From an uncultured bacterium (lineage in GTDB: Bacteria; Fidelibacterota; UBA2242): DNA of 64,000 nucleotides. How positions within the stretch are numbered: the stretch's first letter is position 1; each line of letters opens with the position of its first letter. Below, one piece after another: positions 28,552-50,857 of the stretch. The stretch lies in NCBI GenBank assembly GCA_964441235.1, contig CAYTUQ010000002.1, positions 1,705-65,704 of the forward strand, given 5' to 3'. The translations under genes and the position numbers were made by a program. The notes beneath the pieces were generated by a model. It worked only from the letters and a program-made list of their open reading frames with translations. It was not told where the DNA came from and made no database searches.

Positions 28552-28636
28552 GCACCAATCTGTCATCCAATGGAAAGGCACAAATGAAAAAAGTGATTGG
28601 AAGTAAGTATATATGACATAGAAAATATTTAACAAT

Positions 28637-29369: not shown

Positions 29370-29390
29370 ATACCTGGTTTTTACTAATCT

Positions 29391-29714
29391 TCAGTTAGGC
29401 AATTTATCAGGTGGAATTGGCTGAATACCGAACGGCAAATTTCTCTCTTTATCGGGCATTTTGACTTCACCAAACTTTGACTCAAACTTAGCAATGTTGT
29501 CTCTAAGTGTATAAAGCAGAGTTTTTGCATGTATTGGAGTCATAATAATCCTGCTTTGAACGACAGCTTTGGGAGCTCCTGGCATAACTCTGGCAAAATC
29601 AATGACAAATTCTGCGCCTGAATGTGATATTACCGTAAAGTTGCTATAGTTACCTTCAGCTTTTGATTCGGGTAGCTCTATTTTTATCTGAGTAACCTGC
29701 TTTTTTTGATCCAC
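29391..29714 (-). CDS. hypothetical protein (DUF3467-like)
   Basis: EGNYSNFTVISHSGAEFVIDF pattern. Confidence 0.3.
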   Translation of the reverse strand: MDQKKQVTQIKIELPESKAEGNYSNFTVISHSGAEFVIDFARVMPGAPKAVVQSRIIMTPIHAKTLLYTLRDNIAKFESKFGEVKMPDKERNLPFGIQPIPPDKLPN

Positions 29715-29752
29715 AATATCTCCTTGTTAAAAATCCCAAATTGTAAACCTGA

Positions 29753-30211
29753 TTATTTTTTCTTCTTTTTAGGTTTTTTCTTGGGTTTATCGGAAGATTC
29801 ATTTACTGAATTATCTTCATGGGATTCGTCCTCCCAATCATCAATAATTGCGATGTTATCCCCAAAAATATTCCATGCATCTTCTTCATTCTCATTTTGA
29901 AGACTTTTTTCGCGTTCTAATTCCTCTTCAAATTCGTCCCAGACTTCCTTACGCTTTTCAAACTTAGACGGATCTATTTCAGGCTCATCATAATCTTCCA
30001 GTTCTTCCTTTAACATTTCATCTCCATATAGACTCATATCAAAGAAATCTATATCATCTACTATATCATAGAAAACGAGTAACTCGAGGAAATTTAAATA
30101 TTTGGGATTTCGTAAATTTTTCTTACAGTGTGGACAAATTAAAGATTTTTTTAATTGTTCTTCCGATAATGGCTGACCACATTCTGGGCAAGCTAAATCT
30201 TCCATTGTCAC
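29753..30211 (-). CDS. zinc-ribbon protein with acidic middle and poly-Lys tail
   Basis: CPECG...CPHCKK ribbon, then a D/E-rich stretch and ...KKKPKKKKK. Confidence 0.35.
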   Translation of the reverse strand: MTMEDLACPECGQPLSEEQLKKSLICPHCKKNLRNPKYLNFLELLVFYDIVDDIDFFDMSLYGDEMLKEELEDYDEPEIDPSKFEKRKEVWDEFEEELEREKSLQNENEEDAWNIFGDNIAIIDDWEDESHEDNSVNESSDKPKKKPKKKKK

Positions 30212-30395
30212 TCCTCAATAATTGCGGCGGTAAATATAAACTGTTAAGCCCAGTTGGTCAAGAGAAATTTTAGATTTTTTTAATATTTTATTTTATGTAA
30301 AAATATTACTCTTAAAACGCATGAAACGCTTATTTTAATTACCTTTTATAATAAAATTCATACAGAACTTTTATATTGTGTATTACTGAAATTTT

Positions 30396-30929
30396 TCAAG
30401 TATTATTCTCAGTCGTCTGTTTATGTATAGATGTTATCAGGCTCTTTATTTGGATGTACCCGGATTCAATGGAATTATCTTCCTTCTTGTCAATTTGCAT
30501 ATTAAAACAGAAATCGGAATAATCTGATTTAAAGCCGATTCGTAATTGTACATTGCTATTATTAACGAAATATGCTGTCGTTAAATTGAAATCAATATTT
30601 AAATCAGCTGCTGCAATATAATTGTACTGAAAAATTTCTTTTACCAGACTATCTGAGGGTAGCAGAGACCTGCCAATATCAGAATTTAAAACAGGTATAA
30701 AACGGTTTGGGTCAATATTCTTGATAATCGGAAAAAATGCCTGGTGAATTATTGCCTTTATTTTAATACTATGCTCATCTATTAATGGGAAAAATACACG
30801 CTGTGCAATTTTAAATGGTATCGTATCAAATGGTAAACAAATGAGTATATATTCCTCATCTGAAGAATGCTGTGGACTGAGATTTCCGGTGCCCAATAAT
30901 TTTTTAACAGTTCGCTTTGATGTACTCAA
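30396..30929 (-). CDS. hypothetical protein
   Basis: ORF only. Marks the left edge of the defense island. Confidence 0.25.
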   Translation of the reverse strand: MSTSKRTVKKLLGTGNLSPQHSSDEEYILICLPFDTIPFKIAQRVFFPLIDEHSIKIKAIIHQAFFPIIKNIDPNRFIPVLNSDIGRSLLPSDSLVKEIFQYNYIAAADLNIDFNLTTAYFVNNSNVQLRIGFKSDYSDFCFNMQIDKKEDNSIESGYIQIKSLITSIHKQTTENNT

Positions 30930-31408
30930 TTATATCTCAATATTTTATCCTTATATCAAAATGCCTTTTTTTATATGGTACGCCTATAAGTCGAAGGGAA
31001 CGATTTTAAAAGACCTTTTTTCTTATCACTCACTAAACATTCCTTATTTTTTATTGGGTGGAAAATAAGTTATTCAGATGAAAAACAAAAGATATTTTAA
31101 ACCTGCACAGTAATTCACCAAGTTATAGGTTTTGCTCGTACCACGAAGCTCTGCTTCGCAAGCATATTTGCGAAGCAGTACGTAGGACGCGGTACATTTA
31201 TCCGTTTTAGTAAGAAGATCAGAAGACACGTCTGTGCCCGTAACTGACTCATTACCTTGCAAAACCAGGATAATGTTATCACTCATCAAACTTGTTATAT
31301 TATCTTAGATGATAAATAACAAAAGTTTTTATAGAAATTTAATTTATTGTCTTTTTACTTATTATCTGTAATTTTGTTTTCTGTGAAGATTTAAATAGGG
31401 AAATAACG

Positions 31409-31693
31409 ATGAGCATTAAAATAAAAAAGTTCGGCACTTTTGAGGGAGTTTTGACTCTACGCTCCTTGCTACTCTATTTTATTTACGGCAATAATTATAG
31501 AACTAAGCCTGCTGGTTATTCCGTAAATGATATTGGAAAAATAGATTTCTCCAAATTACGTAATGTTACAATTGGTAGGATTTTTTCTGAATTAAATATA
31601 ATTGAGCAGTGGGGACGGGAATTTACAAATATTATTGAATCTTGTAGGCAATATAAAAATATCGTTCCGGAATTCAAAGAAGAATTATTGTAG
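31409..31693 (+). pseudogene. remnant of HATPase_c_4-type (RecG-C-terminal-like) putative transcriptional regulator
   Basis: The C-terminal 'QWGREFTNIIESCRQYKNIVPEFKE' resembles the HATPase_c_4 tail 'G.GI.R..E.C...G.P.P.F'. At 94 aa it is far shorter than intact members. Confidence 0.3.
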
Positions 31694-32020
31694 TTTAAGA
31701 TTATTTTTTGGAATAAGAAAATAGATAAAAAAGTCGGAGATAAGCTCGGAGAAAAGGTGGTCAGAAAATCTTGCAAAAAGCTAAAAATATATTAGACTTA
31801 GTTAAAACAAATCCACATATTTCAAAAAGTGAACGCACTGCGTTCAGAATTGAGCTGGACGCATTATAGTCTATTGTTGAAGGTAGAAATTGATGTTGTT
31901 GACCATATTATTGCCACCAAAACTGAATATTTTAGTTTTAAAGATAGAAAATTATTGCAATGTTGCTGAAAGTTTAATATTTTCATTTACCTGTATAAAT
32001 TTATACAGGAATTATAAAAT

Positions 32021-32602
32021 ATGAAAAATATAAAGGCTATAGAAATCTTACAAAATTCAGGGAAGAAGATTTTCACCCTTTCTGAAATAAAGAATATTTT
32101 AGGCATTGAGAAAGATAATACAATCTACAAAAAAGTAGAATCTTTGATAAAAGATCGGATATTAAAAAGGGCAATTAAAGGAATCTATTATTTTACTTAT
32201 AATTCACCGTCAGATTTTGAATTAGCTAATCATCTTTATCAACCGTCTTATGTCTCTCTTACTTCGGCGTTAAATTTCCATGGAATTTTAGTCCAGGTGC
32301 CATATAAAATAACTTCTGTTACTCCTAAATTAACACGGGAAATTTATATTAACGAAAAGACCTTTAAATATTCTCATATCTCAAAAGATTATTTTTGGGG
32401 ATATCAAAAAGTAGAAGGATTTCTAATTGCAGAACCAGAAAAAGCATTTTTGGATGTTCTGTTCTTTATGAGCTTGGGGAGGATTATTATAAGTTACGAT
32501 GAACTTTTGTTAGATAGGATTGATTATGAAAAATTTTCAGAAATGACCAAAAAAATTAAAAACCCTAACTTTCACAGATTTTTAAAAAAATTAAAATTAT
32601 GA
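32021..32602 (+). CDS. AbiEi-type antitoxin/transcriptional regulator (type IV TA / abortive infection)
   Basis: N-terminal wHTH (KNILGIEKDNTIYKKVESLIKDRILKRAIKGIYYF). Its stop overlaps the start of the downstream AbiEii gene (ATGA). Confidence 0.55.
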   Translation: MKNIKAIEILQNSGKKIFTLSEIKNILGIEKDNTIYKKVESLIKDRILKRAIKGIYYFTYNSPSDFELANHLYQPSYVSLTSALNFHGILVQVPYKITSVTPKLTREIYINEKTFKYSHISKDYFWGYQKVEGFLIAEPEKAFLDVLFFMSLGRIIISYDELLLDRIDYEKFSEMTKKIKNPNFHRFLKKLKL

Positions 32603-33399
32603 TTACACCTGAACAGATTCAAGATTTATCAAAAAAAAAGAGGATAAATCAAGATACTATACTGCGAGAATATCTTCAACTTTTATTTTTGCAGAATCTT
32701 TATAGCGAAAAGTTGTCACAGAAAATTTATTTTAGAGGCGGAACAGCAATTCATTTGCTTTTAGGTTCTTCACGATTTTCAATGGATTTGGATTTTACTT
32801 CAGAAATTTCTACAACTTGTCTGGAAAAATTAATAAAAAAGATTGTTGATAGAATGAATTTGGAAATTCCAGATATCAGATTAAAATCATCAAGAAAAAG
32901 AATCAATCACTCATTTTCTAAGATTCTATCCTATTATCCAAAAGAGAAGAAATACCCTGTTAATATTGCAATTGATTTCTCTTTAAGAGAAAAACCTGTG
33001 AAAAAAACTCAAATAACAGTATTGAAAACTGATTTTCCAATAAGTGGTTTACCTGTAATTTCACATCTACATTGGCAGGAAATCTTAGCAGAAAAAATCA
33101 GGGCAATCTTGATTCGTGGAAAAGGAAGAGATTTATATGATATTTATTATTTGGTTATGAAAAATATCCGCCAGCTGGCAGATTGGGATGTGGTGAAAGA
33201 AAAAATGAAGATATATCCAGAAGTTGATATTGATACAAATATGAATACTCTTATTAGTAGAATTGAAAAATTGGGAAACAAAGAGCTTAAAAATGATTTA
33301 GCCCAGTTTTTACCTGATTCTGAAAGAAATTCTCTTTTGCCAATATTGAAAGACGAGTTAATTAAAGAACTTGAAAAATATAAACAAACACGAGGATGA
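32599..33399 (+). CDS. AbiEii/AbiGii nucleotidyltransferase toxin (DUF1814)
   Basis: YFRGGTAIHLLLGSSRFSMDLDF matches the GGTAL...R.S.DLDF nucleotidyltransferase signature. Confidence 0.7.
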   Translation: MITPEQIQDLSKKKRINQDTILREYLQLLFLQNLYSEKLSQKIYFRGGTAIHLLLGSSRFSMDLDFTSEISTTCLEKLIKKIVDRMNLEIPDIRLKSSRKRINHSFSKILSYYPKEKKYPVNIAIDFSLREKPVKKTQITVLKTDFPISGLPVISHLHWQEILAEKIRAILIRGKGRDLYDIYYLVMKNIRQLADWDVVKEKMKIYPEVDIDTNMNTLISRIEKLGNKELKNDLAQFLPDSERNSLLPILKDELIKELEKYKQTRG

Positions 33400-33490
33400 G
33401 TTTATAATTCGGTGAAAATTATGAACAAAAATAATTACCAAAATTGGACAAATGATGCTTATAATAATTAAATAGGACCATGAAATAGTT

Positions 33491-34216
33491 ATGGATGAAA
33501 AGAGTTGGATAAAAAATAGACCGGAGTATGAAAGACCTCGTGAAAAACTTTTGAAGTTTGGTTCTAAGAATCTTTCTAATTCGGAATTACTTGCTATCTT
33601 TCTTAGAATAGGTGTTAAAGACAAAAGTGCAATTCAACTTGCAGCAGAAATATTAGAAAAATTTGGTGGGATTAGAGGAATTTGTACTGCCAAAATAGAA
33701 GATTTACTTACAATAAAAGGATTGGGTATAGCAAAGATTGCTCAATTAAAAGCAACTTTAGAACTCGCTGAAAGGTATCTTAAAGAAGATGTTAAGCAAA
33801 AATCAATTGTAGAAAGCTCAAAGGAAGTTTTAAATTATCTTCATCATTCAATGCAAGATTTAGATCATGAATTAATGAAAGTAATCCTTTTGAATGGTCA
33901 AAATCAAATAATAAATATTGTAGATTTATTTAGAGGCTCTATAAGTTCATCAAGTGTTTATCCAAGGGAGATAATCAAATTGGCTCTTAAATATTCAGCT
34001 TTAGCAATTGTTATTGTTCATAATCATCCTTCTGGAATTTCAAAACCAAGCGAAGGTGATAAAAAACTTACAAAAGAAATTATTTTTGCATGTATTTCTA
34101 CAGGTATTAAAGTTCACGACCATATAATAATTGGCAATAAAAAGCATTATAGTTTTGCTGATGAGGGAATTATTGAAGTTTACGAAAAAGAATATGAAAA
34201 GAGGATGAAACTATGA
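33491..34216 (+). CDS. radC: RadC-like JAB/MPN domain protein
   Basis: N-terminal HhH (LLTIKGLGIAKIAQLKATLELAERY) and a JAMM motif (HNHPSG...S..D). Confidence 0.8.
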   Translation: MDEKSWIKNRPEYERPREKLLKFGSKNLSNSELLAIFLRIGVKDKSAIQLAAEILEKFGGIRGICTAKIEDLLTIKGLGIAKIAQLKATLELAERYLKEDVKQKSIVESSKEVLNYLHHSMQDLDHELMKVILLNGQNQIINIVDLFRGSISSSSVYPREIIKLALKYSALAIVIVHNHPSGISKPSEGDKKLTKEIIFACISTGIKVHDHIIIGNKKHYSFADEGIIEVYEKEYEKRMKL

Positions 34217-36096
34217 GTCCAGTAAAATATCAAAGAGTGGATGAAATAGAAAAAAGGGGATATTTAAGAGATTATGCAACGGGAAAATGGGTTAGGTCAA
34301 GGCCCGAAGAAGGACCAAGACAAATATTTGAAAAAAGGTTAGTTGGAGAATATGGCTACGACAAAGGTCAAATTGAAATTGAGTTCTTAATACAAAAAGG
34401 AGCTAGAAAAATCGGTCCTGCTGATATAGTTGTTTTTCACGATTCAAAAAGAAAAACATTTGATAACATAAAAATAGTGGTTGAAACAAAGAGAAAAGAA
34501 AAAAATGATGGAAAAGATCAATTAAGATCTTATTCAATATCACCATCCCAAGAATTTGCAGTTTGGTTTAACGGAAAAGACATTCTATTTCTACAGGTTC
34601 TGAAAAAAGCACCATGGTTTAGAGAAATCCCAGATATTCCTAAAAAAGGTGAGACATTAGAAGATGTAGGGCTTTATTATAAGAAGGATTTAAAACCTGC
34701 AACAGAACTGAAAACTGTTTTTGAGATTTGTCACAATTATATTTATGCAAATGAGGGACTCTTGAAAGAGAAGGTATTTAATGAGGTGCTAAAACTAATT
34801 TTTATCAAAATGGCTGATGAAAAGAAATCAAATCCCAAATGTGAGTTTAGAATTACTGACAAAGAATTAAAAGAATTAGAAGAGGGCAAAGAAAATGCAT
34901 TTGTGAATAGGATTTTGAATCTTTTTAGTGAAGTAAAAACAAGATATAGTGATGTTTTTGAGAAAAATGAAAGAATATATCTAAGACCTTTAACAATTGC
35001 CTTTATTGTCAGTCAATTCCAAAAATATAGTTTGATTAACACTAAAGCAGATGTTAAAGGAACAGCATTTCAAACATTTGTTTATGCTCATCAAAGAGGA
35101 GAGAGAGGGGAGTTCTTTACACCACATCCAATTGTTGAATTAGCAGTAAATATGCTAAATCCAAAAGACAATGAAAGATTTATTGACCCTGCTTGTGGTT
35201 CTGGCGGTTTCCTTGTTAAAGGAATGAATTATATTAAAGAAAAATTTATTAAAGATAATCCTCATAGGATAACTGAAGCAGATAAATTTATAGGTGAATA
35301 TGCACATTCTTATGTTTCTGGAATTGATATTAATCCTGATTTGGCAAAAGTTGCAAAGATGCACATGATTTTGTATGATGATGGACACACGGGAATTTTT
35401 TCAGCGAATACTTTAGAGAGTTTTGATAATTTGGTAAAAACTGCACAAGAAATGGGAGTTCCAAGAGCAATACAACCAAGACCAAATACTTTTCAAGTTT
35501 TGATGACCAATCCACCTTTTGGGACAAAGGGAAAAGTAACGAATAAAAGAATCTTGGAAAACTTTGAACTTGGCCATAAATGGAAAAACGATAAAGAAAT
35601 AGGAGGATGGATAAAAACAAATAAAATCTTGGATGGGCAAGTTCCAGATATTTTATTCATTGAGAGATGTTTGCGGTTATTGGACAATCATGGTAGAATG
35701 GCAATTGTTTTGCCTGACGGTGATTTAACAAATCAAAATACAGAGCATATAAGAGAATTTATTAAACAAAAAGCAAGATTACTGGCAGTAGTTTCTATGC
35801 CTATTGGAACATTTATGCATGCTGGAGTTAATCCAAAAGCAAGTGTATTGTTTTTACAAAAATTGGATGAAGAAAAATTAGAAGAGTTGAATAGAAAAGA
35901 TTATCCCATCTTCATGGCCATTGCTGAGAGGATAGGCTATGATTTAACAAGTAAAACACCTAAAATACTTTACAAAAGAGATGAGAAGGGAGAGATAATT
36001 AAATATAAAGAAGGAAAACCAATTATTGAATCTGATATTCCAGAAATAATAGAAGCGTTTAACGGATTCAAAAGGAAATATAACTTGAGGTTTTAA
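34213..36096 (+). CDS. hsdM: Type I-like N6-adenine DNA methyltransferase (HsdM) with N-terminal HsdR_N-like domain
   Basis: Motif I DPACGSGGFL and motif IV NPPFG. The N-terminal ~130 aa (ARKIGPADIVVFHD...IKIVVETKRKEK...QLRSYS...FAVWFNGKDI) match the HsdR_N PD-(D/E)xK-like fold. Confidence 0.75.
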   Translation: MSPVKYQRVDEIEKRGYLRDYATGKWVRSRPEEGPRQIFEKRLVGEYGYDKGQIEIEFLIQKGARKIGPADIVVFHDSKRKTFDNIKIVVETKRKEKNDGKDQLRSYSISPSQEFAVWFNGKDILFLQVLKKAPWFREIPDIPKKGETLEDVGLYYKKDLKPATELKTVFEICHNYIYANEGLLKEKVFNEVLKLIFIKMADEKKSNPKCEFRITDKELKELEEGKENAFVNRILNLFSEVKTRYSDVFEKNERIYLRPLTIAFIVSQFQKYSLINTKADVKGTAFQTFVYAHQRGERGEFFTPHPIVELAVNMLNPKDNERFIDPACGSGGFLVKGMNYIKEKFIKDNPHRITEADKFIGEYAHSYVSGIDINPDLAKVAKMHMILYDDGHTGIFSANTLESFDNLVKTAQEMGVPRAIQPRPNTFQVLMTNPPFGTKGKVTNKRILENFELGHKWKNDKEIGGWIKTNKILDGQVPDILFIERCLRLLDNHGRMAIVLPDGDLTNQNTEHIREFIKQKARLLAVVSMPIGTFMHAGVNPKASVLFLQKLDEEKLEELNRKDYPIFMAIAERIGYDLTSKTPKILYKRDEKGEIIKYKEGKPIIESDIPEIIEAFNGFKRKYNLRF

Positions 36097-37034
36097 TGAT
36101 GGAAAAAGAAAAAATGACTTTTGAGGATTTTTGGAATCATGAAACAGAATATTTTAAAGAAACGGCAAAAGAAAGTTTTAAAAAAAATAAACAGGGAGTT
36201 GAATATTTTATAGAATATCTCGATAATTATATAGATCTATTTGGCATAAACAAGTATTACCAAAAAGATGAAATAACAAATTCTATTTCTGCTATGTTTC
36301 TCTTTTACTCCTTTAAACAATTGCGATGGGTTAATCATGAGATTCTATCAGGTGCTTATTTTGAGGCAATCAGAGATTTAAGATTTGCATTTGAAACTAT
36401 TGTTTGGGCACATTTTTTAGATGAGTGGATTAACGAAAAAACAAAAGAATACCTAAAAGTAAGTATAGGAGCAGGAATATCTTTAAAATATGAGATTTTA
36501 AAGTTAAGAGATGAGATATATGATGTCAAAGGTTATAGAAAAAAGAAAAATGAAAGAGAGAAAATAGTTAAGGAAAATGTTGGCAAATTCATAAAAAAGC
36601 ATGCCCAAGATTTTACAAACGAAGAAACGTGGAAATATAAAGAACTTTATTTTGAAATCTTGAAGAACTTGGGAGTTGGATTTACTGGAAAAAATGGATT
36701 AATTGCTAAACTTCCCTTAGAAGAGGAAGATGAAAAGAAGTTGGACAAACTTTATTCAGAATTATCAAAATATATCCATCCATCAAACAGAATAATAAAA
36801 CCGTTTTATGAAGACGATATTGGTTTAATCTTTAATTTTTGCTATAATAAAATATTATTTAATAGCTGTATGAGGTTTCTTGTAGATGTTATGGACTTAT
36901 TTTATGCCATTCTTTACGTCCATTTTGAGAAACTTAGAGAAGTGATTAAAGAAAAAATTGTAGATTTTTGTAAGGTTAATTTTAATATGGAATTTCCGAT
37001 AACTGAAAAATTAATACGGGATGACCTAGTATGA
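36096..37034 (+). CDS. hypothetical protein embedded between hsdM and hsdS
   Basis: 312 aa with no recognisable motif. Start overlaps the hsdM stop and stop overlaps the hsdS start, so it is operonic. Confidence 0.3.
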   Translation: MMEKEKMTFEDFWNHETEYFKETAKESFKKNKQGVEYFIEYLDNYIDLFGINKYYQKDEITNSISAMFLFYSFKQLRWVNHEILSGAYFEAIRDLRFAFETIVWAHFLDEWINEKTKEYLKVSIGAGISLKYEILKLRDEIYDVKGYRKKKNEREKIVKENVGKFIKKHAQDFTNEETWKYKELYFEILKNLGVGFTGKNGLIAKLPLEEEDEKKLDKLYSELSKYIHPSNRIIKPFYEDDIGLIFNFCYNKILFNSCMRFLVDVMDLFYAILYVHFEKLREVIKEKIVDFCKVNFNMEFPITEKLIRDDLV

Positions 37035-39439
37035 TAATTTCAGAAGCAAAATTTTCAGAAGCTTATACCAAACTAAGATTTGATGCTGAATATTTTAAAA
37101 CAGAATTCATTGAAACACGATATAGATTAGAAAAAATTAATGCATCCAAACTTACTTCTATTGCTGAAATATCAAAATTAAGGAGGGATCCTACAAAAGA
37201 ATCGGATAAAGAATTTATATACATTGATATAAGCAATATTGATACATCTGTTGCTGATGTCAGTACACAGAAAATAATAGGTTATAAAGCACCAACAAGA
37301 GCGAGAAAATTAGTTCAAACAGGAGATGTTATAGTATCTACTGTACGACCGAATAGAAATGCCGTCGCAATTATACCAAAAGAATTAGATAATAGCGTTT
37401 GTTCTACAGGCTTTTGTGTTTTAAAACCGACGGAAGTAAATTTGCATTATTTGTTTGTTTTCTTAAAAACAAAATATGCAATAAATCAACTAGTAAGAGA
37501 AACTATGGCTTCTATGTATCCCGCAGTTAGTGAAGATCAAATTAAAAAGATATTGGTGTTTTTACCATCTTTTGAATTCCAGTTTCACGTAGAAAAACTC
37601 GTCAAAGAAGCATTTTCAAAACGAAAACTTGCTGATGAAAAATACAAACAAGCAAAACAACTTTTAGAAAAAGAATTAGGACTTGATAAATTAAAATTAA
37701 AAGAAGAAAAAACATTTGAAGCAAAATCATCAGAACTATTTGGAAGTAGAAGATTTGATTCTGAGTACTACAAGCCGAAGTGCAAACAAATCATAAGGTT
37801 TCTTAAAAATTCTGGGTTTGAAGTAAAGAAATTAAAAGAGATTGTAAAAATTTCAAATAAGAAAATTGACCCAACAAAGGAGCCAACCAAAAGGTTTAGA
37901 TATGTTCCAATAGCAAAGATAAATTCAAATGGAGAAATTGATGAGTGGGATGAATTTAATGGTTGGCAGGCACCAAGCAGGGCAAGAATGCTTATTAAAA
38001 AAGGGGATGTTTTAGTCTCATCATTAGGTGGTTCGCTTAACAAAATAGCATTAGTTCCTGAAGAATTAAATAATTCAATTGCTACAACAGGAACCTTTGT
38101 CATCAATTCTGAAAACTTTTATAGTGAATTCTTATTTTTATTATTCAGAACAGAACTAATCAAATTGCAGTTGGAGCGGAAAACAGCAGGTGCAATAATG
38201 ACTGCTGTTCCTAAAACAACTTTTGGAAATTTACTAATTCCAATTATTCCAAAACAAAAGCAAGAAAATATTGCAAAATTAATAAACCAATCTTTTACTT
38301 TGAGAAAAGAAGCAAAACAACTTTTAGAAGAGGCAAAAGAAAAGGTGGAAAGTATGATAGAAAATCCTTTAGAAATCTCTGAAACCCAACCCGTTCTCCG
38401 TAGTCCTGATAAAATTGGGACGAAGGGTGAACCTGAGATTATTATCCCTTTTCCTATTCCTTCAAAATTAATAAGCCTTAAACCGCCTGTCAAAGTAAAA
38501 TATAAAGATTACCAAATGCTTGATGGTTCAATAAAGAAATTGGTTCAACAAATAGGAGATGGTTCAATCATTAAAAGATTTGAAAAAACACCAATACCTA
38601 AAAGTAAAATAGATGTAGTTTGTCCTCATTTTCTTGAATTAAAATGGGCAACAGGATGTCCTTATGATTGTTCCTGGTGCTATCTGAAAGGAACTTTTAG
38701 ATTCTTGCCGTATAAAGCGAAACCACATATTAAGGATTTTGATAAGATAGAAAAACATACAAAGACATTTTTGGAATATGTTCAAACTCCTGAAGTATTA
38801 AATACAGGTGAGCTGGCAGACTCACTAATGCTTGAAGTAAAGAATAAATCATTTGTTAAGTTTATTGTTCCACTTTTTGAAAACCAAAATAAGCATAAGA
38901 TTCTCTTTTTGAGTAAATCAAACAAAATAGAAAATCTTTTATTACTTAATACACATCGTCAGGTTATAGTAAGTTTTAGTCTTAATGCTATTCCTGTGGC
39001 ACAAAGATGGGAAAAGAAAGCACCTTCAGTTGAAGACCGCATAAAAGCAGCAGGGATTCTATACAAACAACGATTTGAAGTAAGGATAAGGATAGACCCA
39101 ATGATCCCTGTGGAAAACTGGGAGCAACTTTATACTGATTTAATAGACCGCATATTTAATTCGTTTATACCTGAAAGAATTACTTTAGGTTCTCTTAGAG
39201 GATTACAGAGTACTATCAATGGAACATCAGATAAGTCCTGGGTAAAATATCTATCTGAACGCTCAAACTGGGGAAGAAAAATAGATATTAATTTAAGGCT
39301 TGCTATGTACAAAACAATTATCTCTTATTTAAATGAAAAGTATAAATATAATAAGGTCGCTCTTTGCAAAGAAACTTTGGCAATTTGGGATATACTAAAT
39401 ACGAATTATAAAAATATAAAATGTAATTGTGTGTGGTAG
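37031..39439 (+). CDS. hsdS: Type I specificity subunit (two TRDs) fused to a C-terminal SPL/COG1533-like radical SAM domain
   Basis: Residues 1-~450 carry two HsdS target-recognition domains (RFDAEYF...STGFCVLKP..., RFDSEYYKP...TTGTFVI...) with conserved coiled-coil spacers. Residues ~500-802 carry CPYDCSWCY (CxxxCxxC) followed by spore-photoproduct-lyase-family landmarks (LFLSKS, SFSLNA, IRIDPMIP). It is a single continuous ORF. Confidence 0.6.
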   Translation: MIISEAKFSEAYTKLRFDAEYFKTEFIETRYRLEKINASKLTSIAEISKLRRDPTKESDKEFIYIDISNIDTSVADVSTQKIIGYKAPTRARKLVQTGDVIVSTVRPNRNAVAIIPKELDNSVCSTGFCVLKPTEVNLHYLFVFLKTKYAINQLVRETMASMYPAVSEDQIKKILVFLPSFEFQFHVEKLVKEAFSKRKLADEKYKQAKQLLEKELGLDKLKLKEEKTFEAKSSELFGSRRFDSEYYKPKCKQIIRFLKNSGFEVKKLKEIVKISNKKIDPTKEPTKRFRYVPIAKINSNGEIDEWDEFNGWQAPSRARMLIKKGDVLVSSLGGSLNKIALVPEELNNSIATTGTFVINSENFYSEFLFLLFRTELIKLQLERKTAGAIMTAVPKTTFGNLLIPIIPKQKQENIAKLINQSFTLRKEAKQLLEEAKEKVESMIENPLEISETQPVLRSPDKIGTKGEPEIIIPFPIPSKLISLKPPVKVKYKDYQMLDGSIKKLVQQIGDGSIIKRFEKTPIPKSKIDVVCPHFLELKWATGCPYDCSWCYLKGTFRFLPYKAKPHIKDFDKIEKHTKTFLEYVQTPEVLNTGELADSLMLEVKNKSFVKFIVPLFENQNKHKILFLSKSNKIENLLLLNTHRQVIVSFSLNAIPVAQRWEKKAPSVEDRIKAAGILYKQRFEVRIRIDPMIPVENWEQLYTDLIDRIFNSFIPERITLGSLRGLQSTINGTSDKSWVKYLSERSNWGRKIDINLRLAMYKTIISYLNEKYKYNKVALCKETLAIWDILNTNYKNIKCNCVW

Positions 39440-39451
39440 AAAGGAAAGATT

Positions 39452-40549
39452 ATGTCTATTAAAGAAACAATATGGAAGATTGAACTGCACACACAGGCAA
39501 AGCATGAAATACTAAAGCGGTATCTTCAAGCGTGGCTTCCAATAATGAGTACTGTTAGTGGGCGTATTTTGTATATTGATGGCTTTGCAGGTCCAGGAAA
39601 GTATTTAGACGAAAATAATCAGCCAACTATTGATGGCTCTCCACTTGTGGCTATGAATGCAGCAATAAAGCACAAGTTACCGCTAAAGGCGGAGATAGTA
39701 TTTCTTTTAATTGAAGCAGACCCTAAAAGATTTGACTATCTTAAAAATTTGCTTTCAGAAATAACTTTTGCAGATAGTATGAAATATAAAGTAGTATGTA
39801 GTAAATTTGATGAAACTCTTACATCTATTCTAAACGACTTTGATGAGCAGAAGAAACAATTAGCTCCAACTTTTGCATTCATTGACCCATTTGGATATTC
39901 CGATACACCTCTTGCAGTTGTTAAACGAATAATGGAGAGCCCAAAGTGTGAGGTCCTTATTACATTTATGTATAGTTTTATAAAAAGAGCTATTGTCAAA
40001 CTCGACCAAGAAGATCATCTAGACATTCTTTTTGGTACCCAAGAATGGAGAAAAATTCGAGATATTGGTTATCCTTCAAAGAAACGAGAATTTGCCCAGC
40101 AACTTTATAAAAAACAATTGGAAAAGGAAGCCAATATAAAATATGTGCGTTTTTTTGAGATGATTAATAAGTTCAATCAAACTGAATATTTTTTATTTTT
40201 CGGAACTAATAGTCTTGAAGGACTTAGATATATGAATTCGTCAATGTGGAAAGTTGATCCGAGTGGAACATTTCAATTTTCTGATAGAACAAATCCTAAT
40301 CAAACAGTGCTCTTTACTCTAGAGCCTAACTATAACTTACTTAAAAGATTAATTGTCAGAGAATATAAAGGTAAAACGGTCTCAGTTGAAGAAGTTGATG
40401 AATTTGTATTAGTGGCTGGTTTCACTCATTTCAAAAAGAATATTTTGGAACCTATGGAAAGAGCAAAACCTGCTCAGATAGAAGTGATTAAGAGTAATAG
40501 GAAGAGAAGATATACTTATCCACCAAGAACTATAATTAAATTTTTGTAA
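39452..40549 (+). CDS. hypothetical protein with methyltransferase-like DxFxGxG motif, possible radical-SAM partner ('TcmP-like')
   Basis: LYIDGFAGPGKY resembles SAM-MTase motif I and FAFIDPFGY resembles a degenerate motif IV. Immediately downstream of the rSAM fusion, with a 12-nt gap. Assignment to the three-Cys-motif-partner family is from memory only. Confidence 0.3.
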   Translation: MSIKETIWKIELHTQAKHEILKRYLQAWLPIMSTVSGRILYIDGFAGPGKYLDENNQPTIDGSPLVAMNAAIKHKLPLKAEIVFLLIEADPKRFDYLKNLLSEITFADSMKYKVVCSKFDETLTSILNDFDEQKKQLAPTFAFIDPFGYSDTPLAVVKRIMESPKCEVLITFMYSFIKRAIVKLDQEDHLDILFGTQEWRKIRDIGYPSKKREFAQQLYKKQLEKEANIKYVRFFEMINKFNQTEYFLFFGTNSLEGLRYMNSSMWKVDPSGTFQFSDRTNPNQTVLFTLEPNYNLLKRLIVREYKGKTVSVEEVDEFVLVAGFTHFKKNILEPMERAKPAQIEVIKSNRKRRYTYPPRTIIKFL

Positions 40550-40643
40550 AAGAATTTAAAACATATTTTGATACAAAAATTAAATTTAATATCAGGTCAG
40601 TTTTAAAGTGAAATGCTAAATAAAAATTAAGGTGAGGAATAGG

Positions 40644-40922
40644 ATGAAGAAAAATCAGAAAACTGGCTACCAATATGAAAAATCTCAAGCAAAAAAACAC
40701 CGAGGTAAACATCTTGGTGGCCCAGGAAAACCGGATTATCAAAGAGGTAAAATTAAGGGTGAAGTAAAAGACTGGAAACATCCCGTACATAGCGGAGTAA
40801 TTAAAAAAGCCATAAAAAATGGTGTAAAAGAAGTTGTAAGTAAAAGTGGTTTCACAAAACCAGCTATACAATTGGCTAAAAAGAAAAATATAAAATTTAT
40901 AAGACGAGGAAAAAAAGTTTAG
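40644..40922 (+). CDS. small basic protein with PD-(D/E)xK-like motif (Mrr-cat-like restriction endonuclease fold?)
   Basis: GGPGKPDYQRGKIKGEVKDWKH fits D-x(9)-E-x-K. Very Lys/Arg-rich. RBS GGTGAGG precedes ATG 40644. Confidence 0.25.
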   Translation: MKKNQKTGYQYEKSQAKKHRGKHLGGPGKPDYQRGKIKGEVKDWKHPVHSGVIKKAIKNGVKEVVSKSGFTKPAIQLAKKKNIKFIRRGKKV

Positions 40923-41164
40923 AAAAAAATATAATTCTCCTATTCAGTCATTATAAATAAGATAAAAAATTTCTTATTTATAATGCAAATTTATTAGAAG
41001 CAATTGTTACTAAAAATCTTATTATTATGAAAAAAACATAGACATTTAGAGATTTGCCGATATAAGAGCAATAAATAGCATAAATGCAAAAGAAAAGCAA
41101 AATAGCTTTTTGAAGAAGCAAAAAGAAAAATTGAGAAGATGATTTTAAGATCATCTACAAGAAA

Positions 41165-41524
41165 ATGACTTTATTTATAGAGAACAAAATGAATAGAGAT
41201 AAAAATATCAGAAAAATAATTTCAAGAATGGTAGAGAAAATCAAAACTGAATATCAACCAGAAAGGATAGTTCTCTTTGGTTCTTATTCTTGGGGAAAGC
41301 CAACAAGGGATAGTGATGTAGATTTACTTATTATTAAAAAGACAAATGAAAGACATTTAGAGAGAGCAATTAGGGTTAGAGAAATTGTTGATAAAGAAAA
41401 CCGAATGGTTCCACTAGATATTGTGGTATATACTCCACAAGAGCTCAAACAGAGATTGAAAGCAAGAGATTGTTTTATAAAAACAATATTAACAAAAGGA
41501 GATGTAGTTTATGAACAAGAATGA
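41165..41524 (+). CDS. nucleotidyltransferase (MntA-like antitoxin, Pol-beta superfamily)
   Basis: LFGSYSWGKPTRDSDVDLLII is the GS...D.D motif. Overlaps the downstream HEPN gene by 14 nt. Confidence 0.7.
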   Translation: MTLFIENKMNRDKNIRKIISRMVEKIKTEYQPERIVLFGSYSWGKPTRDSDVDLLIIKKTNERHLERAIRVREIVDKENRMVPLDIVVYTPQELKQRLKARDCFIKTILTKGDVVYEQE

Positions 41525-41894
41525 AGCATTTAGATGGTTCAAACGAGCTCAAAAAGATATTGAAGATGCAGAATTCCTCTTGAAAGAAAGCCGAACTTTA
41601 GAAAATGTAGCACTCCTTATTCAACAAGCAATTGAAAAATATCTCAAAGGATTCATAATATATCATGATTGGGAATTGGAGAAAATCCATGATTTGATAA
41701 CGCTTATTAACTATGCGAGTAAAATTGACAAATCCTTTGAGAAGTTTGTTCCTTCTCTCAGAATTATCACTAATTTCTATTTTGAAAGCCGCTATCCTAT
41801 TACCTATGAACCAGATTATACAAAAGAAGAAATAAGAGAATCTCTTAAAGAAGCAAAGAAACTTATTGCTCTAATTAAAGAAAAAGTAAAATAA
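41511..41894 (+). CDS. HEPN domain protein (HepT-like toxin)
   Basis: HEPN helical fold with ...ESRYP...Y... signature. Paired with the MNT gene. Confidence 0.6.
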   Translation: MNKNEAFRWFKRAQKDIEDAEFLLKESRTLENVALLIQQAIEKYLKGFIIYHDWELEKIHDLITLINYASKIDKSFEKFVPSLRIITNFYFESRYPITYEPDYTKEEIRESLKEAKKLIALIKEKVK

Positions 41895-42013
41895 TGCTTT
41901 GATTACTTGTTCAATCCCCTGAAGCAACAAGAAGCAAAGCAACTCTTAGAAGAAGCAAAAAGAAAAGTTGAGAAGATAATGGATAGAGAAAGTGATAAAA
42001 ACAGGTAGGAAAA

Positions 42014-43051
42014 ATGTTTAAACCCAAATTTACATACACAAATAAAATTGTAAGGTTGCTTACCAGAATATCTGCAGCGAGAGAGATAATTCTTAATTCG
42101 CCTTTGATCCCGGGGTGGAATGTTACATTAAGGCAGGAAGCAATAATCCACAGTGCTCATTCGTCCACGCGTATTGAGGGAAATAGATTATCATTGGAAC
42201 AAGTAAGCGAATTATCTCTTGGAAGAGAAGTAATGGCGACTCGAAGAGATAAACAGGAAGTTTTGAACTATCTGAATGTGCTAAAAAATATTGATAAGCT
42301 GATAAAAGGAAATTCTATAAGTGAGAAAGATATCTTAAATATTCACCGTATGGTAACAGAAGACACATTAGACAATTCTAATGATTGTGGGGTTTATCGT
42401 AACCGTTATGTTGTGGTTGGAAATAGATTTACAGGGGAGATTTTCTTTAAGCCACCGCAAAATGAGGATGTTCCCGGGTTAATAGAAGATTTGATTGAAT
42501 GGATAAACTCTGAGGAATCAAAATCACTCGAGCCTGTTATTGAAGCGGGTATTGAGCATTATGAATTTGTCAGAATTCATCCTTTTGTTGATGGTAATGG
42601 GAGAACTGCAAGAGTTCTGGCAACTTTGATTCTCTACATGCGAGATTTCGACACAAAACAATTTTTTTGCCTTGATGATTATTACGATTCTGATAGACAA
42701 GCATACTATTTAGCATTACAAAGTGTTAAACAAGACACATTAGACCTGACAAACTGGTTGGAATATTTTGTCGAGGGAGTAAGTGTAAGCACTGAGGCTG
42801 TCAAAGAAAGAGTGATAAGGTTAAGTAGTGAGAGACTGAGAAGATCAAAAGGCGGGCAAATAGCTTTAACCGAAAGACAGATAAGAATTGTGGAATTTAT
42901 TAATAAAAATGGTAAAATAACTAATAGAGATGTACGGGGAATGTTTAAACTTTCGGATGAAGGTGCATTGAGAGAGATTAAAAAACTAATGGTGTTGAAA
43001 GTTATTCAAAGCCAGGGTAAAGGGAGAGGGTTGCATTATGTCCTTAAATAA
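42014..43051 (+). CDS. fic: Fic/DOC family protein with Fic_N and C-terminal wHTH
   Basis: HPFVDGNGRTARV is the Fic motif HPFx[DE]GNGR. N-terminal ...HSSTRIEGN... is a Fic_N motif. Confidence 0.8.
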   Translation: MFKPKFTYTNKIVRLLTRISAAREIILNSPLIPGWNVTLRQEAIIHSAHSSTRIEGNRLSLEQVSELSLGREVMATRRDKQEVLNYLNVLKNIDKLIKGNSISEKDILNIHRMVTEDTLDNSNDCGVYRNRYVVVGNRFTGEIFFKPPQNEDVPGLIEDLIEWINSEESKSLEPVIEAGIEHYEFVRIHPFVDGNGRTARVLATLILYMRDFDTKQFFCLDDYYDSDRQAYYLALQSVKQDTLDLTNWLEYFVEGVSVSTEAVKERVIRLSSERLRRSKGGQIALTERQIRIVEFINKNGKITNRDVRGMFKLSDEGALREIKKLMVLKVIQSQGKGRGLHYVLK

Positions 43052-43123
43052 GGTTGGCGATTAGGTTGGCGATTAGGTTGGCGATTAGGTTGATGATTAG
43101 GTTGATGATTAGGTTGATGATTT
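43052..43123. repeat. 12-bp tandem repeat (GGTTGGCGATTA x3, GGTTGATGATTA x3)
   Basis: Six perfect or near-perfect head-to-tail units, starting one base after the fic stop codon. Confidence 0.85.
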
Positions 43124-43251
43124 GACAATTTTATTTTGTCTAAATTTACCCTACAACGTCATTTGTCGCAGACATCTCTTTGAGATAGCAAATCAGGCAA
43201 ATGCCTGATATAGTTCGTACCATCAACTGTAAATACTACATCCGGTATATT

Positions 43252-43321
43252 TAAGGGGGTGTGATAGAATGAAGTTTTCACTCAGTCAACTTACTAAAGG
43301 TTATATTATCACACCCCCTAA
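43252..43321. mobile_element. 70-bp MITE-like element with TAAGGGGGTGTGATA TIRs
   Basis: taagggggtgtgata ... tatcacaccccctaa. Same TIR as the 6237-6517 element. Confidence 0.45.
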
Positions 43322-43360
43322 ATTTTTATATTACGTAGTAGGGTTAATAGTGGTGTAATA

Positions 43361-44200
43361 ATGAAACGATTATATTTTCAAAGAAATCTTTTTAGAATCC
43401 TTTGCATACTACCAGTTCTTATCTTCTTCTCATTTACTTCTGCTGCTCAGATAGATACTGTCGAAATTAAAAGTGAAGCGATGCAGAAGTCGCCAAAAGC
43501 GGTTGTAGTATTGCCTGAAAAATATTTAAGCAGCGACAGCAATTTCCCCGTACTCTATCTCTTACACGGTTGGAGTGGATGTTATGGGGATTGGAGCAAG
43601 CATATAGATTTGCGTCCTTTAGCGGATGAATACAATTTGATAATTGTCTGTCCTGACGGCGGTTATGCCGGCTGGTATATAGATAGTCCTCTGGTTGAAG
43701 ATTCTCAATATGAAACCTATATTTCCAATGAAGTGGTTGCTTTTGTTGATAAAAATTATAGAACAATTGAAAAGACAGATGGCAGGGTGATTTGTGGTTT
43801 AAGTATGGGTGGGCATGGTGCGATTAGTCTGCTTGCCAAACATCCTGATATTTACTGTGCTGCGGGAAGTATGAGTGGCGTAATGGAATTGACTTCATCA
43901 AGTAAAAAATACGGGCTTACTAATTTGCTTGGTGATTACAGGACGAATAAAAATAAGTGGAGAAAGAATTCTTGTATTAATTTGGCTGGTAAATTAGTTG
44001 GGAAAAATAGAGGAGTTATTATTGATTGCGGTGTAGATGATTTTCTCGTTAAAGGTAATAGGAAAATGCACAAGAAACTTCTGAAATTGAAGATAGAACA
44101 CGATTATTATGAGAGAACGGGGAAACACAGTTGGAGCTATTGGACAAATGCTCTGGAATACCATATTTTATTTTTTAGCAAGTTTTTAAGGCATGAATAG
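43361..44200 (+). CDS. putative esterase (alpha/beta hydrolase, esterase D/S-formylglutathione-hydrolase-like)
   Basis: Signal peptide, VLYLLHGWSG and GLSMGGHGA nucleophile elbow. Confidence 0.6.
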   Translation: MKRLYFQRNLFRILCILPVLIFFSFTSAAQIDTVEIKSEAMQKSPKAVVVLPEKYLSSDSNFPVLYLLHGWSGCYGDWSKHIDLRPLADEYNLIIVCPDGGYAGWYIDSPLVEDSQYETYISNEVVAFVDKNYRTIEKTDGRVICGLSMGGHGAISLLAKHPDIYCAAGSMSGVMELTSSSKKYGLTNLLGDYRTNKNKWRKNSCINLAGKLVGKNRGVIIDCGVDDFLVKGNRKMHKKLLKLKIEHDYYERTGKHSWSYWTNALEYHILFFSKFLRHE

Positions 44201-44265
44201 TAATATGAATCTTTTTATCAGAGAAAAAGGAATCATTTTACTTATAGTTTCAAAATCAGATCAAT

Positions 44266-45306: not shown

Positions 45307-45394
45307 ACAATTGATTAAAACAGTATGATTTGTTAAAATGAATGCGAATGATCACGGCTCAAGTTGAAAATATTAGTCAGGGGAGATATAAGAA

Positions 45395-46417: not shown

Positions 46418-46447
46418 TCAGTGTTCGCAAGGTTTAAGGAGAGTAGT

Positions 46448-47530: not shown

Positions 47531-47585
47531 CAATGATTTATAAATTGAAAAAGAATATTAACAAATAGAAAATAGGAGGATCAAA

Positions 47586-48662: not shown

Positions 48663-49004
48663 GATTGTAGATTGTGATTAGAGATTTTCGATTTGAAATA
48701 CAGAAGACTGAAATTAGACAAATATGGTTATTTCATTGTAGAGCACAACTTACATAACCACAGCGGTGAATTGTCGCAGATTGCACCTGGATCATTCAAG
48801 TTAAGCCCAACAAGTTATTCTCATTGTATTCTACCAGACCCGTTTGTTTTGAAAAACGGTCAAACAATTTACAAGCCAAAGGATTGGTGATGCAGGTTTC
48901 GATTGTTAAATATTCAGAGTTTGCGAATGTCTATCTTCAGTTGTATTTTGTTTTAATGAACTATTTCCAGAATCTCGTTAATTTCATTAACATAGAAGGA
49001 TTAT

Positions 49005-50782: not shown

Positions 50783-50857
50783 ATATAGGCAGTTGATATT
50801 GCCGATTTTCTATTTTTGGGTAAATTCTAAACAATAAGGAGGTTATTAAAGGGAATT

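Follow-up and report, generated by a model that had tools for sequence, protein, structure and literature searches.

Defence islands are clusters of restriction-modification (RM), abortive infection (Abi) and toxin-antitoxin (TA) genes in the sense of Makarova and Koonin, and PrrC of EcoprrI and RloC are HEPN nucleases embedded in Type I RM loci. Here we describe a cluster of this kind in a 64,000-nucleotide stretch of DNA from an uncultured bacterium (assembly GCA_964441235.1, contig CAYTUQ010000002.1, positions 1,705 to 65,704). This whole stretch is called the window, and positions are given on it unless another sequence is named. Judged by the proteins of the flanks, the source lineage is Candidatus Neomarinimicrobiota (Marinimicrobia). 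The segment from about 31308 to about 43116-43360 is probably a long-resident mosaic defence cluster at a synteny breakpoint, and not a single mobile element between linked genes. Its sole unusual feature is the fusion of an RM specificity subunit (HsdS) to a radical S-adenosylmethionine (rSAM) domain, followed by TcmP, a three-Cys-motif partner protein; otherwise it is an ordinary defence island.

Parts of the cluster also recall other described systems. In the methylation-associated defence system (MADS), the MAD6, MAD7 and MAD8 proteins are mandatory in the authors' model (bioRxiv 10.1101/2023.03.30.534895). Spore photoproduct lyase (SPL) and gp53 of phage M6 are known DNA-directed radical SAM enzymes of the SPL fold, with gp53 demonstrating that enzymes of this fold are able to introduce modifications into DNA (PMC8989533).

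The locus resembles defence islands in holding at least five defence or TA modules in about 12 kb, in being AT-rich and variable between relatives, and in having TA and HEPN/MNT genes around an RM operon. It differs from them in lacking a mobility gene, a tRNA and att repeats, in being fixed and clonal in the sampled population and in having a part that predates a species-level split. Because it shows no mobility signals, is fixed and is partly older than that split, we regard it as a slowly remodelled chromosomal site and not as a recent arrival. AbiE, an RM-like block, TcmP (PDC-M30A), an MNT-HEPN pair and a SoFic-like Fic protein lie inside 11 kb (Table 1). An original prediction, made from the letters of the window, had listed a HATPase_c_4 remnant, AbiEi/AbiEii, RadC, an RM-like module, an MNT-HEPN pair and Fic, and domain scans found all of them. 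The locus thus adds one more case to a well-known pattern, here from Marinimicrobia, a phylum that has been little studied.

Table 1. Coordinates of the features of the defence cluster and of its immediate flanks in the window
Feature	Position	Strand	Evidence and remarks
S9/DPP-IV peptidase pseudogene	28637-29369	+	DPPIV_N match; native, decayed
DUF3467 gene and Zn-ribbon gene	29391-29714 and 29753-30205 (together 29391-30205)	-	Native; paired in Marinimicrobia relatives L102-L107
177-aa conserved hypothetical gene	30396-30929	-	Native; same position in L102, L103, L104
PTR2/MFS transporter remnant (leader and first 13 codons)	30995-31307	-	76% nucleotide identity to L103 336-662
HATPase_c_4 remnant, 94-aa ORF	31409-31693	+	Pfam PF13749 E=6.7e-8; profile positions 23-81 of 89
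AbiEi antitoxin and AbiEii nucleotidyltransferase toxin	32021-32602 and 32599-33399	+	PADLOC 2.1e-32 and 8e-35; Pfam AbiEii 2.9e-26
RadC-like JAB protein; opens the RM-like block	33491-34216	+	Pfam RadC 5.9e-40, UPF0758_N; HNHPSG motif
Nuclease-methyltransferase subunit, 627 aa	34213-36096	+	HSDR_N_2 1.8e-16, N6_Mtase 1.3e-34
312-aa all-helical protein, HEPN-like fold (moderate-confidence model)	36096-37034	+	Between methylase and specificity genes
HsdS::rSAM fusion, 802 aa	37031-39439	+	Methylase_S, SPL and Radical_SAM matches
TcmP (three-Cys-motif partner protein)	39452-40549	+	TIGR04474 218.9 bits vs cutoff 53; PADLOC PDC-M30A 3e-60
92-aa ORF, end of the rSAM-TcmP insert	40644-40922	+	Sub-threshold Mrr_cat and FdhD matches only; called in JGI contigs
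hsdS 3'-end copy A, degenerate	41092-41146	+	Just upstream of MNT; repeat family D2; frame broken; alignable with the true hsdS ends in the window and in L111
MNT nucleotidyltransferase and HEPN	41165-41524 and 41511-41894	+	NTP_transf_2 3.9e-12; HEPN PF05168 4.5e-24
hsdS 3'-end copy B	41907-42008 (repeat 41929-41983)	+	Just upstream of fic; repeat family D2; 33-codon ORF ending ...EAKQLLEEAKRKVEKIMDRESDKNR
Fic protein, SoFic-like	42014-43051	+	Pfam Fic 4.9e-22; PADLOC SoFic 6e-58
12-bp tandem array	43051-43116	.	3 x AGGTTGGCGATT, then about 2.5 x AGGTTGATGATT
70-bp MITE-like element	43251-43322	.	Inverted repeat 43251-43277 / 43296-43322; internally deleted copy
Esterase, first native right-flank gene	43361-44200	+	Pfam Esterase 1.9e-31

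Extent, composition and population status

The cluster spans about 12 kb of AT-rich DNA. Its left edge lies at about 31308, homology to any relative ending at 31307; it had been drawn at 30300, too far to the left, as the 177-aa gene and the PTR2 leader are native. The right edge falls within 43052-43360 and cannot be placed more finely because the deletion found in the closest genome (L009, below) spans it. The block 31308-43116 has a GC content of 0.306, against 0.351 in the left flank and 0.368 in the right one, and its tetranucleotide distance to the rest of the window is 0.23-0.31, against 0.14-0.23 outside; a compositional check suggested with the original prediction for 30-43 kb thus came out positive. 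The fic gene, with a GC content of 0.36, is the sole module with host-like composition. Together with this atypical composition, the absence of the island beside shared flank genes in L009, L102, L103 and L104 marks the DNA as accessory, and it agrees with the anticipated lack of conservation between relatives.

We looked for the usual signs of an integrative element. As first noted, no tRNA was detected in the 64-kb window and no integrase or recombinase domain in any open reading frame (ORF) of 30.3-43.3 kb in Pfam, PADLOC and NCBIfam scans. A search for att-like direct or inverted repeats at the flanks gave none that was convincing, only weak AT-rich matches; the best boundary repeat is 29 nucleotides long at 76% identity, and its left copy lies within native DNA. 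The search for direct repeats at the two edges that had been suggested was accordingly negative; the locus has neither integrase, tRNA or tmRNA target nor att repeats, and no relative joins the two flanks.

Exact-protein look-ups recovered contigs of the same species; four or more JGI metagenomes and a number of SRA runs contributed them. These contigs represent at least six samples, match the window at 100% identity over 4.8-15 kb and all carry the island; no island-free genotype or empty site was present among them. One JGI contig (L097, sample 3300031365) alone covers 27914-44064 and bridges both edges, while the left boundary is also crossed by L099 and the right one by L001 and L098, which come from independent samples. 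The sole difference between L097 and the window over 16 kb is a 30-bp in-frame deletion in tcmP (window about 39575-39604; L097 11658-11661) through which IDGFAGPGKY is lost, a motif more conserved than any other in the family and one with two family-invariant residues.

Logan assemblies from up to 9 runs stop at 31556/31590 and 43177/43300, just inside both ends of the island. Coexisting variants or repeats could be the cause. The breaks were considered as a possible sign of an island-free strain; the MITE-like element and polymorphisms close by can also account for them, and both edges are spanned by JGI contigs.

Deletion scars and decay in the flanks

The genome scan and the metagenome scan were each run with one query. 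The closest genome found, recovered by the esterase scan of reference genomes, is a metagenome-assembled genome (MAG) from the Black Sea (L009). Its purine cluster is collinear with window 43385-53315 at 85-88% nucleotide identity. Upstream of the esterase gene, L009 carries a gene for a 1049-aa YgfK-like oxidoreductase and then genes for a glycosyltransferase, a phosphorylase and transporters; no homologue of any of these genes, from ygfK onward, was detected in the window.

The 260-bp gap between ygfK and the esterase gene in L009 contains two pieces of the island. The first (L009 9826-9904, 79 bp) corresponds to window 41023-41098 at 86% identity, in the region of a copy of the hsdS 3' end (copy A). 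The second (L009 9894-9998, 105 bp) corresponds to window 41958-42062 at 95% identity and comprises another such copy (copy B) and the first 16 codons of fic, which run in frame into about codon 8 of the esterase gene. This fic fragment is a deletion scar, because an insertion into such a fragment cannot create a complete fic gene. The MNT-HEPN pair and Fic therefore stood beside the esterase gene in the common ancestor and were lost by L009, which has no AbiE, RadC, RM block, rSAM-TcmP or MNT-HEPN and lacks most of fic. Consequently at least the MNT-HEPN/Fic part of the island is older than the split from the L009 lineage. An adjacency of esterase and gpmI genes in L010 and L013 was considered as an ancestral state and rejected, since the orientations do not fit a simple insertion.

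On the left side, three relatives located via homologues of the Zn-ribbon protein (L102, L103 and L104) share the order 177/181/187-aa gene, Zn-ribbon gene, DUF3467 gene. L102 holds the full 177-aa ORF in DNA 91% identical to the window, and the protein is 71% identical to the 181-aa protein of L103 and 39% to the 187-aa protein of L104. What lies past this gene in L103 and L104 is a PTR2 transporter and PFK rather than the purine cluster. The PTR2 remnant is the last native DNA before the island; the body of the gene (L103 663-2831, 2.17 kb) has no counterpart in the window.

The S9/DPP-IV pseudogene reported earlier was recognized as such by comparison with the intact 695-aa gene of L102, from which two internal blocks are gone (L102 2235-3060 and 3455-3984, about 0.8 and 0.5 kb). 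Decay of native genes beside the island is thus real and wider than first noted: on the left it includes the S9 and PTR2 genes and, about 9 kb further left, gpmI. The idea of decayed flanks holds for these genes, but not for the island bounds that had been drawn with it.

Mosaic structure and proposed assembly of the cluster

The modules of the island occur separately in unrelated phyla at 60-77% identity. The most informative comparator is a 5.4-kb JGI contig (L111) with the order RadC, 627-aa methylase, the rare 312-aa protein (77% identity), free-standing 446-aa HsdS and MNT. It is 73.6% identical in nucleotide sequence over window 34380-37060 and has no rSAM or TcmP gene. The HsdS protein of L111 ends in ...EAKTEVEELIEGV*, whereas in the window the ORF runs on from ...EAKEKVESMIE through a 25-codon linker, the hsdS stop codon being lost. 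At the other side of this junction, the ancestral rSAM start ATG GGA, as seen in L108, reads ATT GGG in the window.

The hsdS 3'-end sequence is present in three copies, at 38307, 41092 and 41929, and each precedes one cargo block: rSAM-TcmP, MNT-HEPN and Fic, respectively. Copy B is the one kept at 95% identity in L009. We propose that recombination at this conserved hsdS 3' stretch may have stacked cargo blocks downstream of hsdS, and that the rSAM-TcmP unit would have been inserted exactly at the hsdS 3' end, erasing the hsdS stop codon and giving the fused protein. The cluster would sit at a synteny breakpoint where native neighbours were eroded by deletions. In the assembled locus, AbiEi and AbiEii would act as a type IV toxin-antitoxin/abortive-infection pair. 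In the RM block, the S subunit is predicted to pick a bipartite site, the NPPF methylase to mark host DNA and the PD-(D/E)xK domain to cut unmarked DNA, with an embedded HEPN-like protein in a position like that of PrrC in EcoprrI. The third module, SPL-family rSAM and TcmP, is a widespread two-gene unit probably acting on DNA; an MNT-HEPN pair and a putative Fic AMPylase would make up the fourth and fifth. The locus appears to be a worked example of how defence islands can be old, integrase-free patchworks, remodelled via hsdS 3'-end recombination and by deletions that erode neighbouring housekeeping genes.

Several points weigh against the mosaic, long-resident reading. The scars in L009 date only 41.0-43.4 kb, and AbiE and the RM block may have arrived later, in one event. 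The copies of the hsdS 3' end agree at only 69-78% and two of them are degenerate, and recombination at these copies is inferred from their position, not observed. In no relative recovered by the scans is the ancestral locus intact and uninterrupted, so the order of events proposed here is conjectural. As to the functions proposed, restriction by HSDR_N_2 is predicted and whatever activity the 312-aa protein may have is putative, and the HEPN-like fold of the latter comes from a structure model of only moderate confidence.

The HsdS::rSAM fusion and TcmP

The fused protein starts with a two-TRD (target recognition domain) HsdS that extends to about 38365 (first 445 residues or so) and ends with an SPL-family radical SAM domain at about 38435-39439 (last 330 residues or so) containing the motif CPYDCSWC. 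The gene assigned to TcmP thus has, as is expected for this family, an rSAM domain with a CPYDCSWC motif immediately upstream. In a full HMMER scan of 1.84 billion representatives, the fusion alone, out of the 150 best hits, covered both the HsdS and the rSAM half. A word-indexed search gave 1999 homologues of the rSAM domain at E <= 1e-5, the best of them 57-81% identical. Nearly all of the 120 closest are free-standing proteins of 305-350 aa and none is fused to an S subunit. The few homologues that carry source names are assigned to several phyla. Members of the A1 alignment are 57-79% identical to the window domain and include homologues whose sources name them as Zixiibacteriota, Nitrospirota, Aminicenantia, WOR-3, Omnitrophota and Proteobacteria. 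The CxxxCxxC cluster motif (C94, C98, C101) and four further Cys are invariant in 42 sequences, and the window domain keeps all the family-invariant residues.

The domain belongs to the Pfam SPL family only, as its scores against the SPL equivalogs are far below the cutoffs (TIGR04070, 71.5 bits vs 400; TIGR03886, 33 vs 437). Its solved relatives are SPL chains only, and these match weakly (E about 5e-6). It resembles SPL and gp53 in belonging to the same Pfam family, PF20903, and in the same CxxxCxxC motif; it differs from them in forming a separate, highly conserved clade with an extra C-terminal CxC pair and in being always accompanied by TcmP. A phage origin of the domain was considered and rejected, only 4 close relatives being present among 2.9 million viral contigs.

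Other fusions connect the rSAM domain with its partner and with DNA-binding domains. TcmP and rSAM form single proteins in P0192, P0194, P0196 and P0198; the C-terminal part of TcmP that contains a winged helix-turn-helix (wHTH) is fused to rSAM in P0098 and P0143; GMT-wHTH::rSAM proteins are seen in P0089 and P0165, and ParB_N::rSAM proteins in P0229 and P0233 (ParB_N/HTH_ParB). The TcmP, ParB-like, wHTH and HsdS fusions point to DNA as the substrate. A 735-aa protein of the P0233/P0229/P0230 set has a long, unassigned N-terminal region on its rSAM domain which, by eye, may contain an intein- or homing-endonuclease-like insert.

The rSAM-TcmP pair stands beside varied neighbours in L108, L109, L112-L115 and L120. 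The closest free-standing pair (L108 6256-12148) has both proteins 73% identical to those of the window. In an operon with overlapping ORFs (L120 302-5352, also L121), a 976-aa Type IIG RM enzyme with HSDR_N, N6_Mtase, MmeI_Mtase and TaqI_C domains is followed by a TcmP homologue (37% identity) and an SPL-like rSAM protein (63%), which constitutes a second, independent link between the pair and RM; methylases also lie within a few kb of the pair in L113 and L115. The pair is thus highly conserved, widespread and repeatedly found beside restriction-modification genes. Our best guess from these sequence comparisons is that rSAM and TcmP may be the two components of an enzyme with DNA as its substrate, a frequent companion of methylase-based restriction.

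Two neighbourhoods deserve description by themselves. Upstream of the L108 pair are genes for an ATPase of GHKL type (HATPase_c_3), for a protein of 315 aa and for another radical SAM protein that is unrelated to the first; the segment lies between hisS and housekeeping genes. In a Nitrospirota MAG (L119 6563-9347), MNT, HEPN, an N-terminal fragment of RadC and a GMT-wHTH::rSAM gene are wedged within an ABC-transporter operon; RadC and MNT-HEPN are companions in the window as well.

Plasmid-borne TcmP (PADLOC candidate PDC-M30) has three-Cys proteins of the "phage Gp37/Gp68 family" as partners, in the company of defence genes. The island TcmP is like these plasmid copies in adjoining a CxxxCxxC protein amid defence genes; it differs in that the partner is an SPL-family radical SAM protein with no PADLOC model and not Gp37/Gp68, and a profile comparison of the rSAM domain with the plasmid Gp37/Gp68 protein was negative. 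On the Rhodococcus plasmid NZ_CP069241 (L122 8983-12071), two TcmP genes and a Gp37/Gp68 gene are beside a zeta toxin gene and a DUF3375/DUF4194/ATP-binding trio, which from its annotation we take to be Wadjet (JetABC).

As for TcmP itself, no match was obtained to PDB sequences, and a single-sequence AlphaFold model had a pLDDT of 38 and was not used for a fold search. A Rossmann-fold methyltransferase was suspected from the stretches ILYIDGFAGPGKY and FIDPFG, but comparing profiles of TcmP and the island N6-methylase domain gave no match (probability 0.8%). No useful hit to PHROGs was obtained for either the rSAM domain or TcmP. In the literature searched we found no functional study of TcmP, PDC-M30, GMT-wHTH, the rSAM clade or fusions of an S subunit with radical SAM.

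The fusion might be purposeful: HsdS would bring rSAM and TcmP to specific DNA sites for a radical modification or lesion, so that the locus would encode a new sequence-targeted system. The ORF is uninterrupted, the invariant residues of the rSAM domain, including CxxxCxxC and the four further Cys, are kept, and the domain may be made mainly as a fusion now that its own start codon is ATT. The link of the pair to RM genes in L120, L113 and L115, the existence of other DNA-binding N-terminal fusions (ParB_N, wHTH) and the action of SPL and phage M6 gp53 on DNA (PMC8989533) point in the same direction. Yet the arrangement is unique among the best 150 matches in the 1.84 billion cluster representatives, and it coincides exactly with a cassette junction, where it may have arisen by accident upon insertion. 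The L097 variant has lost the IDGFAGPGKY motif of TcmP, which suggests that the pair is dispensable here, and all other differences between copies are lacking, so selection is not measurable. We consider a purposeful fusion possible but doubtful. A further proposal, that rSAM and TcmP are an accessory of methylase-based restriction carrying out radical chemistry on DNA and that the HsdS fusion makes this chemistry sequence-specific here, seems to us unlikely and is put forward tentatively. If it were true, this would be the first natural radical SAM enzyme brought to DNA by a restriction-specificity subunit, and should the pair produce a lesion or modification of DNA that is new, the HsdS fusion would be the obvious construct for finding its targets.

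Alternative origins of the locus

The original prediction interpreted the locus as one island of about 13 kb inserted between a NifS/MOCOS-like gene at 27091 and the purine cluster, which would have separated formerly adjacent, cooperating genes. The block as a whole is low in GC and deviates in tetranucleotide usage, which agrees with a single insertion, as do the decayed genes on the left side. However, no relative has the gene at 27091 adjoining the one at 43361: in L009 ygfK is beside the esterase gene, and in L103 and L104 PTR2 and PFK lie beyond the 177-aa gene. Moreover, the scars of L009 put the right part before the lineage split, the island is composite (compare L111 with L108 and L120), and integrase, tRNA and flanking direct repeat are missing.

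The supposed cooperation between the separated genes fared no better. The protein encoded at 27091 has only an Aminotran_5 class-V (NifS-like) domain, at residues 53-468 of 486, and no MOSC domain was matched in Pfam or NCBIfam, so that the NifS-like plus C-terminal MOSC composition of MOCOS is not present and the name MOCOS-like has to be dropped. A metagenome scan with this aminotransferase yielded 80 loci, whose homologues (55-63% identity) come from many phyla and are of no use for local synteny. A Mo-hydroxylase subunit is encoded near the aminotransferase homologue in two of them, adjacent in L039 and close by in L052, which is the one observation in favour of the link; no neighbour family is common to more than six of the 80, and a conserved Mo-related neighbour is absent. 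The aminotransferase and the Mo-hydroxylases are thus weakly linked in function, and a single insertion splitting linked genes is very unlikely.

At the opposite extreme, the arrangement could be ancestral and ordinary, with AT-rich resident genes and no accessory island at all. The block is identical in every same-species contig, from at least six samples, and Fic has a host-like GC content and a 5' end conserved in L009. But L009 is devoid of AbiE, RadC, the RM block, rSAM-TcmP, MNT-HEPN and most of fic, L102, L103 and L104 have no part of the island beside the shared left-flank genes, and the occurrence of the modules in unrelated phyla indicates horizontal spread, all of which makes this explanation highly improbable. 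That the junctions are artefacts of a chimeric MAG contig joined at repeats can practically be dismissed, for although the Logan contigs break reproducibly near both ends in up to 9 samples and a MITE-like element lies at the right edge, contigs from different samples span the whole locus (L097), the left edge (L099) and the right edge (L001, L098) with 100% identity.

The putative restriction-modification block

One block of the cluster had been described as Type I-like. A methylase (N6_Mtase) and a two-TRD HsdS (Methylase_S in two stretches; PADLOC Specificity_I 5e-45) are indeed encoded, but there is no HsdR motor: no helicase or ResIII protein occurs in the island, and the only HsdR-related part is the HSDR_N_2 domain fused to the methylase. 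The block is instead Type IIB-like, with nuclease and N6A methylase in one 627-aa protein and a separate S subunit. The translation of the methylase subunit shows a PD-(D/E)xK motif (GPADIVVF...VVETK), SAM motif I (FIDPACGSGG) and NPPF, and among solved proteins the Type IIB enzyme RM.BsaXI is the best relative (E=9e-25).

Similarity to BcgI and BsaXI extends to the N-terminal PD-(D/E)xK domain with a gamma-class N6-adenine methylase (NPPF), the separate two-TRD HsdS-like subunit and the absence of an HsdR motor, although the match to BsaXI covers the methylase part only. Two features depart from Type IIB systems: a 312-aa HEPN-like gene between the subunit genes and a 350-aa radical SAM extension on S; cleavage by the island enzyme is predicted only. 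The methylase and S subunit of the island also have MAD2 and MAD5 of MADS as their closest NCBIfam/PADLOC matches, but the scores are under the cutoffs (MAD2, 476 vs 720 bits; MAD5, 134 vs 400) and mad3, mad4 and mad6-8 are absent from the island. The unit is therefore best described as a putative BcgI/BsaXI-like nuclease-methylase with an S subunit, or as a MAD2/MAD5-like one.

The 312-aa protein had no family match in Pfam, PADLOC or NCBIfam, PHROGs gave nothing useful for it and no Rx4-6H motif was identified. Like PrrC in EcoprrI, this protein of HEPN-like modelled fold is encoded inside an RM operon, between the methylase and specificity genes; it differs from PrrC and RloC in having no ATPase domain and no recognizable Rx4-6H motif, its fold being taken from the moderate-confidence model. 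By analogy, its position suggests a back-up or guard role.

Toxin-antitoxin pairs, Fic and small genes

The AbiEi and AbiEii ORFs overlap by 4 nucleotides and show the adjacency typical of a type IV toxin-antitoxin pair. In the second pair, the MNT protein carries the motif GSYSWG..DSDVD and its ORF overlaps that of HEPN. This pair had been called MntA/HepT-like, and an MNT protein with an adjacent HEPN protein is what was found; the assignment of the toxin to HepT did not hold, as no DUF86 match was reported and the family matched was PF05168 (HEPN) instead. The active-site motif of Fic, HxFx(D/E)GNGRxxR, is intact (HPFVDGNGRTAR), and the score against the NCBIfam SoFic equivalog is below the cutoff (82 vs 550). 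Since their signature motifs are intact, AbiE, MNT-HEPN and Fic are presumed to act as described for their families.

Neither the HATPase remnant, the rSAM domain nor the 92-aa ORF had a PADLOC match, and nothing useful for the 92-aa ORF was found in PHROGs. L009 has an extra gene for a 181-aa nucleotidyltransferase-like protein (NTP_transf_5/DUF6036) at 12188-12733, between the ADH and OTCase-like genes of its purine cluster, that is absent from the window.

Repeats and other features of the window

Two repeats had been described at the right side of the island, and both are present. The 12-bp tandem array (TRF: 5.5 copies, 96% matches, score 104) has a pattern that occurs nowhere else in the window, with 0.02 occurrences expected by chance. 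The 70-bp element with terminal inverted repeats (TIR) had been thought to mark the end of the island, a role it cannot have because a second copy of its family, 279 bp long, is located at 6237-6515, between two genes and in the opposite orientation with the same termini. These termini read (T/A)AGGGGGTGTGATA, and the terminal 14-mer occurs 4 times vs 0.24 expected. Its two copies, of 279 bp and 70 bp, end in inverted repeats and have no coding capacity, so that the family has the properties of a miniature inverted-repeat transposable element (MITE). The purine/Mo-hydroxylase cluster that begins beyond the esterase gene shows XdhC, Ald_Xan_dh, Fer2_2 and FAD_binding_5 domains.

Some further features of the window are of minor interest. 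A perfect-stem hairpin (CTGCTTCGCAAATATGCTTGCGAAGCAG) lies in the PTR2 leader at 31140-31180 on the minus strand and is also present at L103 451-483; it has no Rfam match and overlaps a spurious 71-aa ORF (31074-31289). The last kilobase (63001-64000) has a GC content of 0.448, compared with 0.31-0.39 elsewhere in the window, and no Rfam match. About 9 kb to the left of the island, a gpmI remnant (22300-22752, minus strand) encodes the C-terminal 150 residues or so of cofactor-independent phosphoglycerate mutase (Metalloenzyme family), whose homologue in L013 has 516 aa. The truncated gene abuts a cobalamin riboswitch (Rfam RF00174, 92 bits) at 22832-23011 on the plus strand, directly upstream of the gene for a TonB-dependent receptor (23039-25195).

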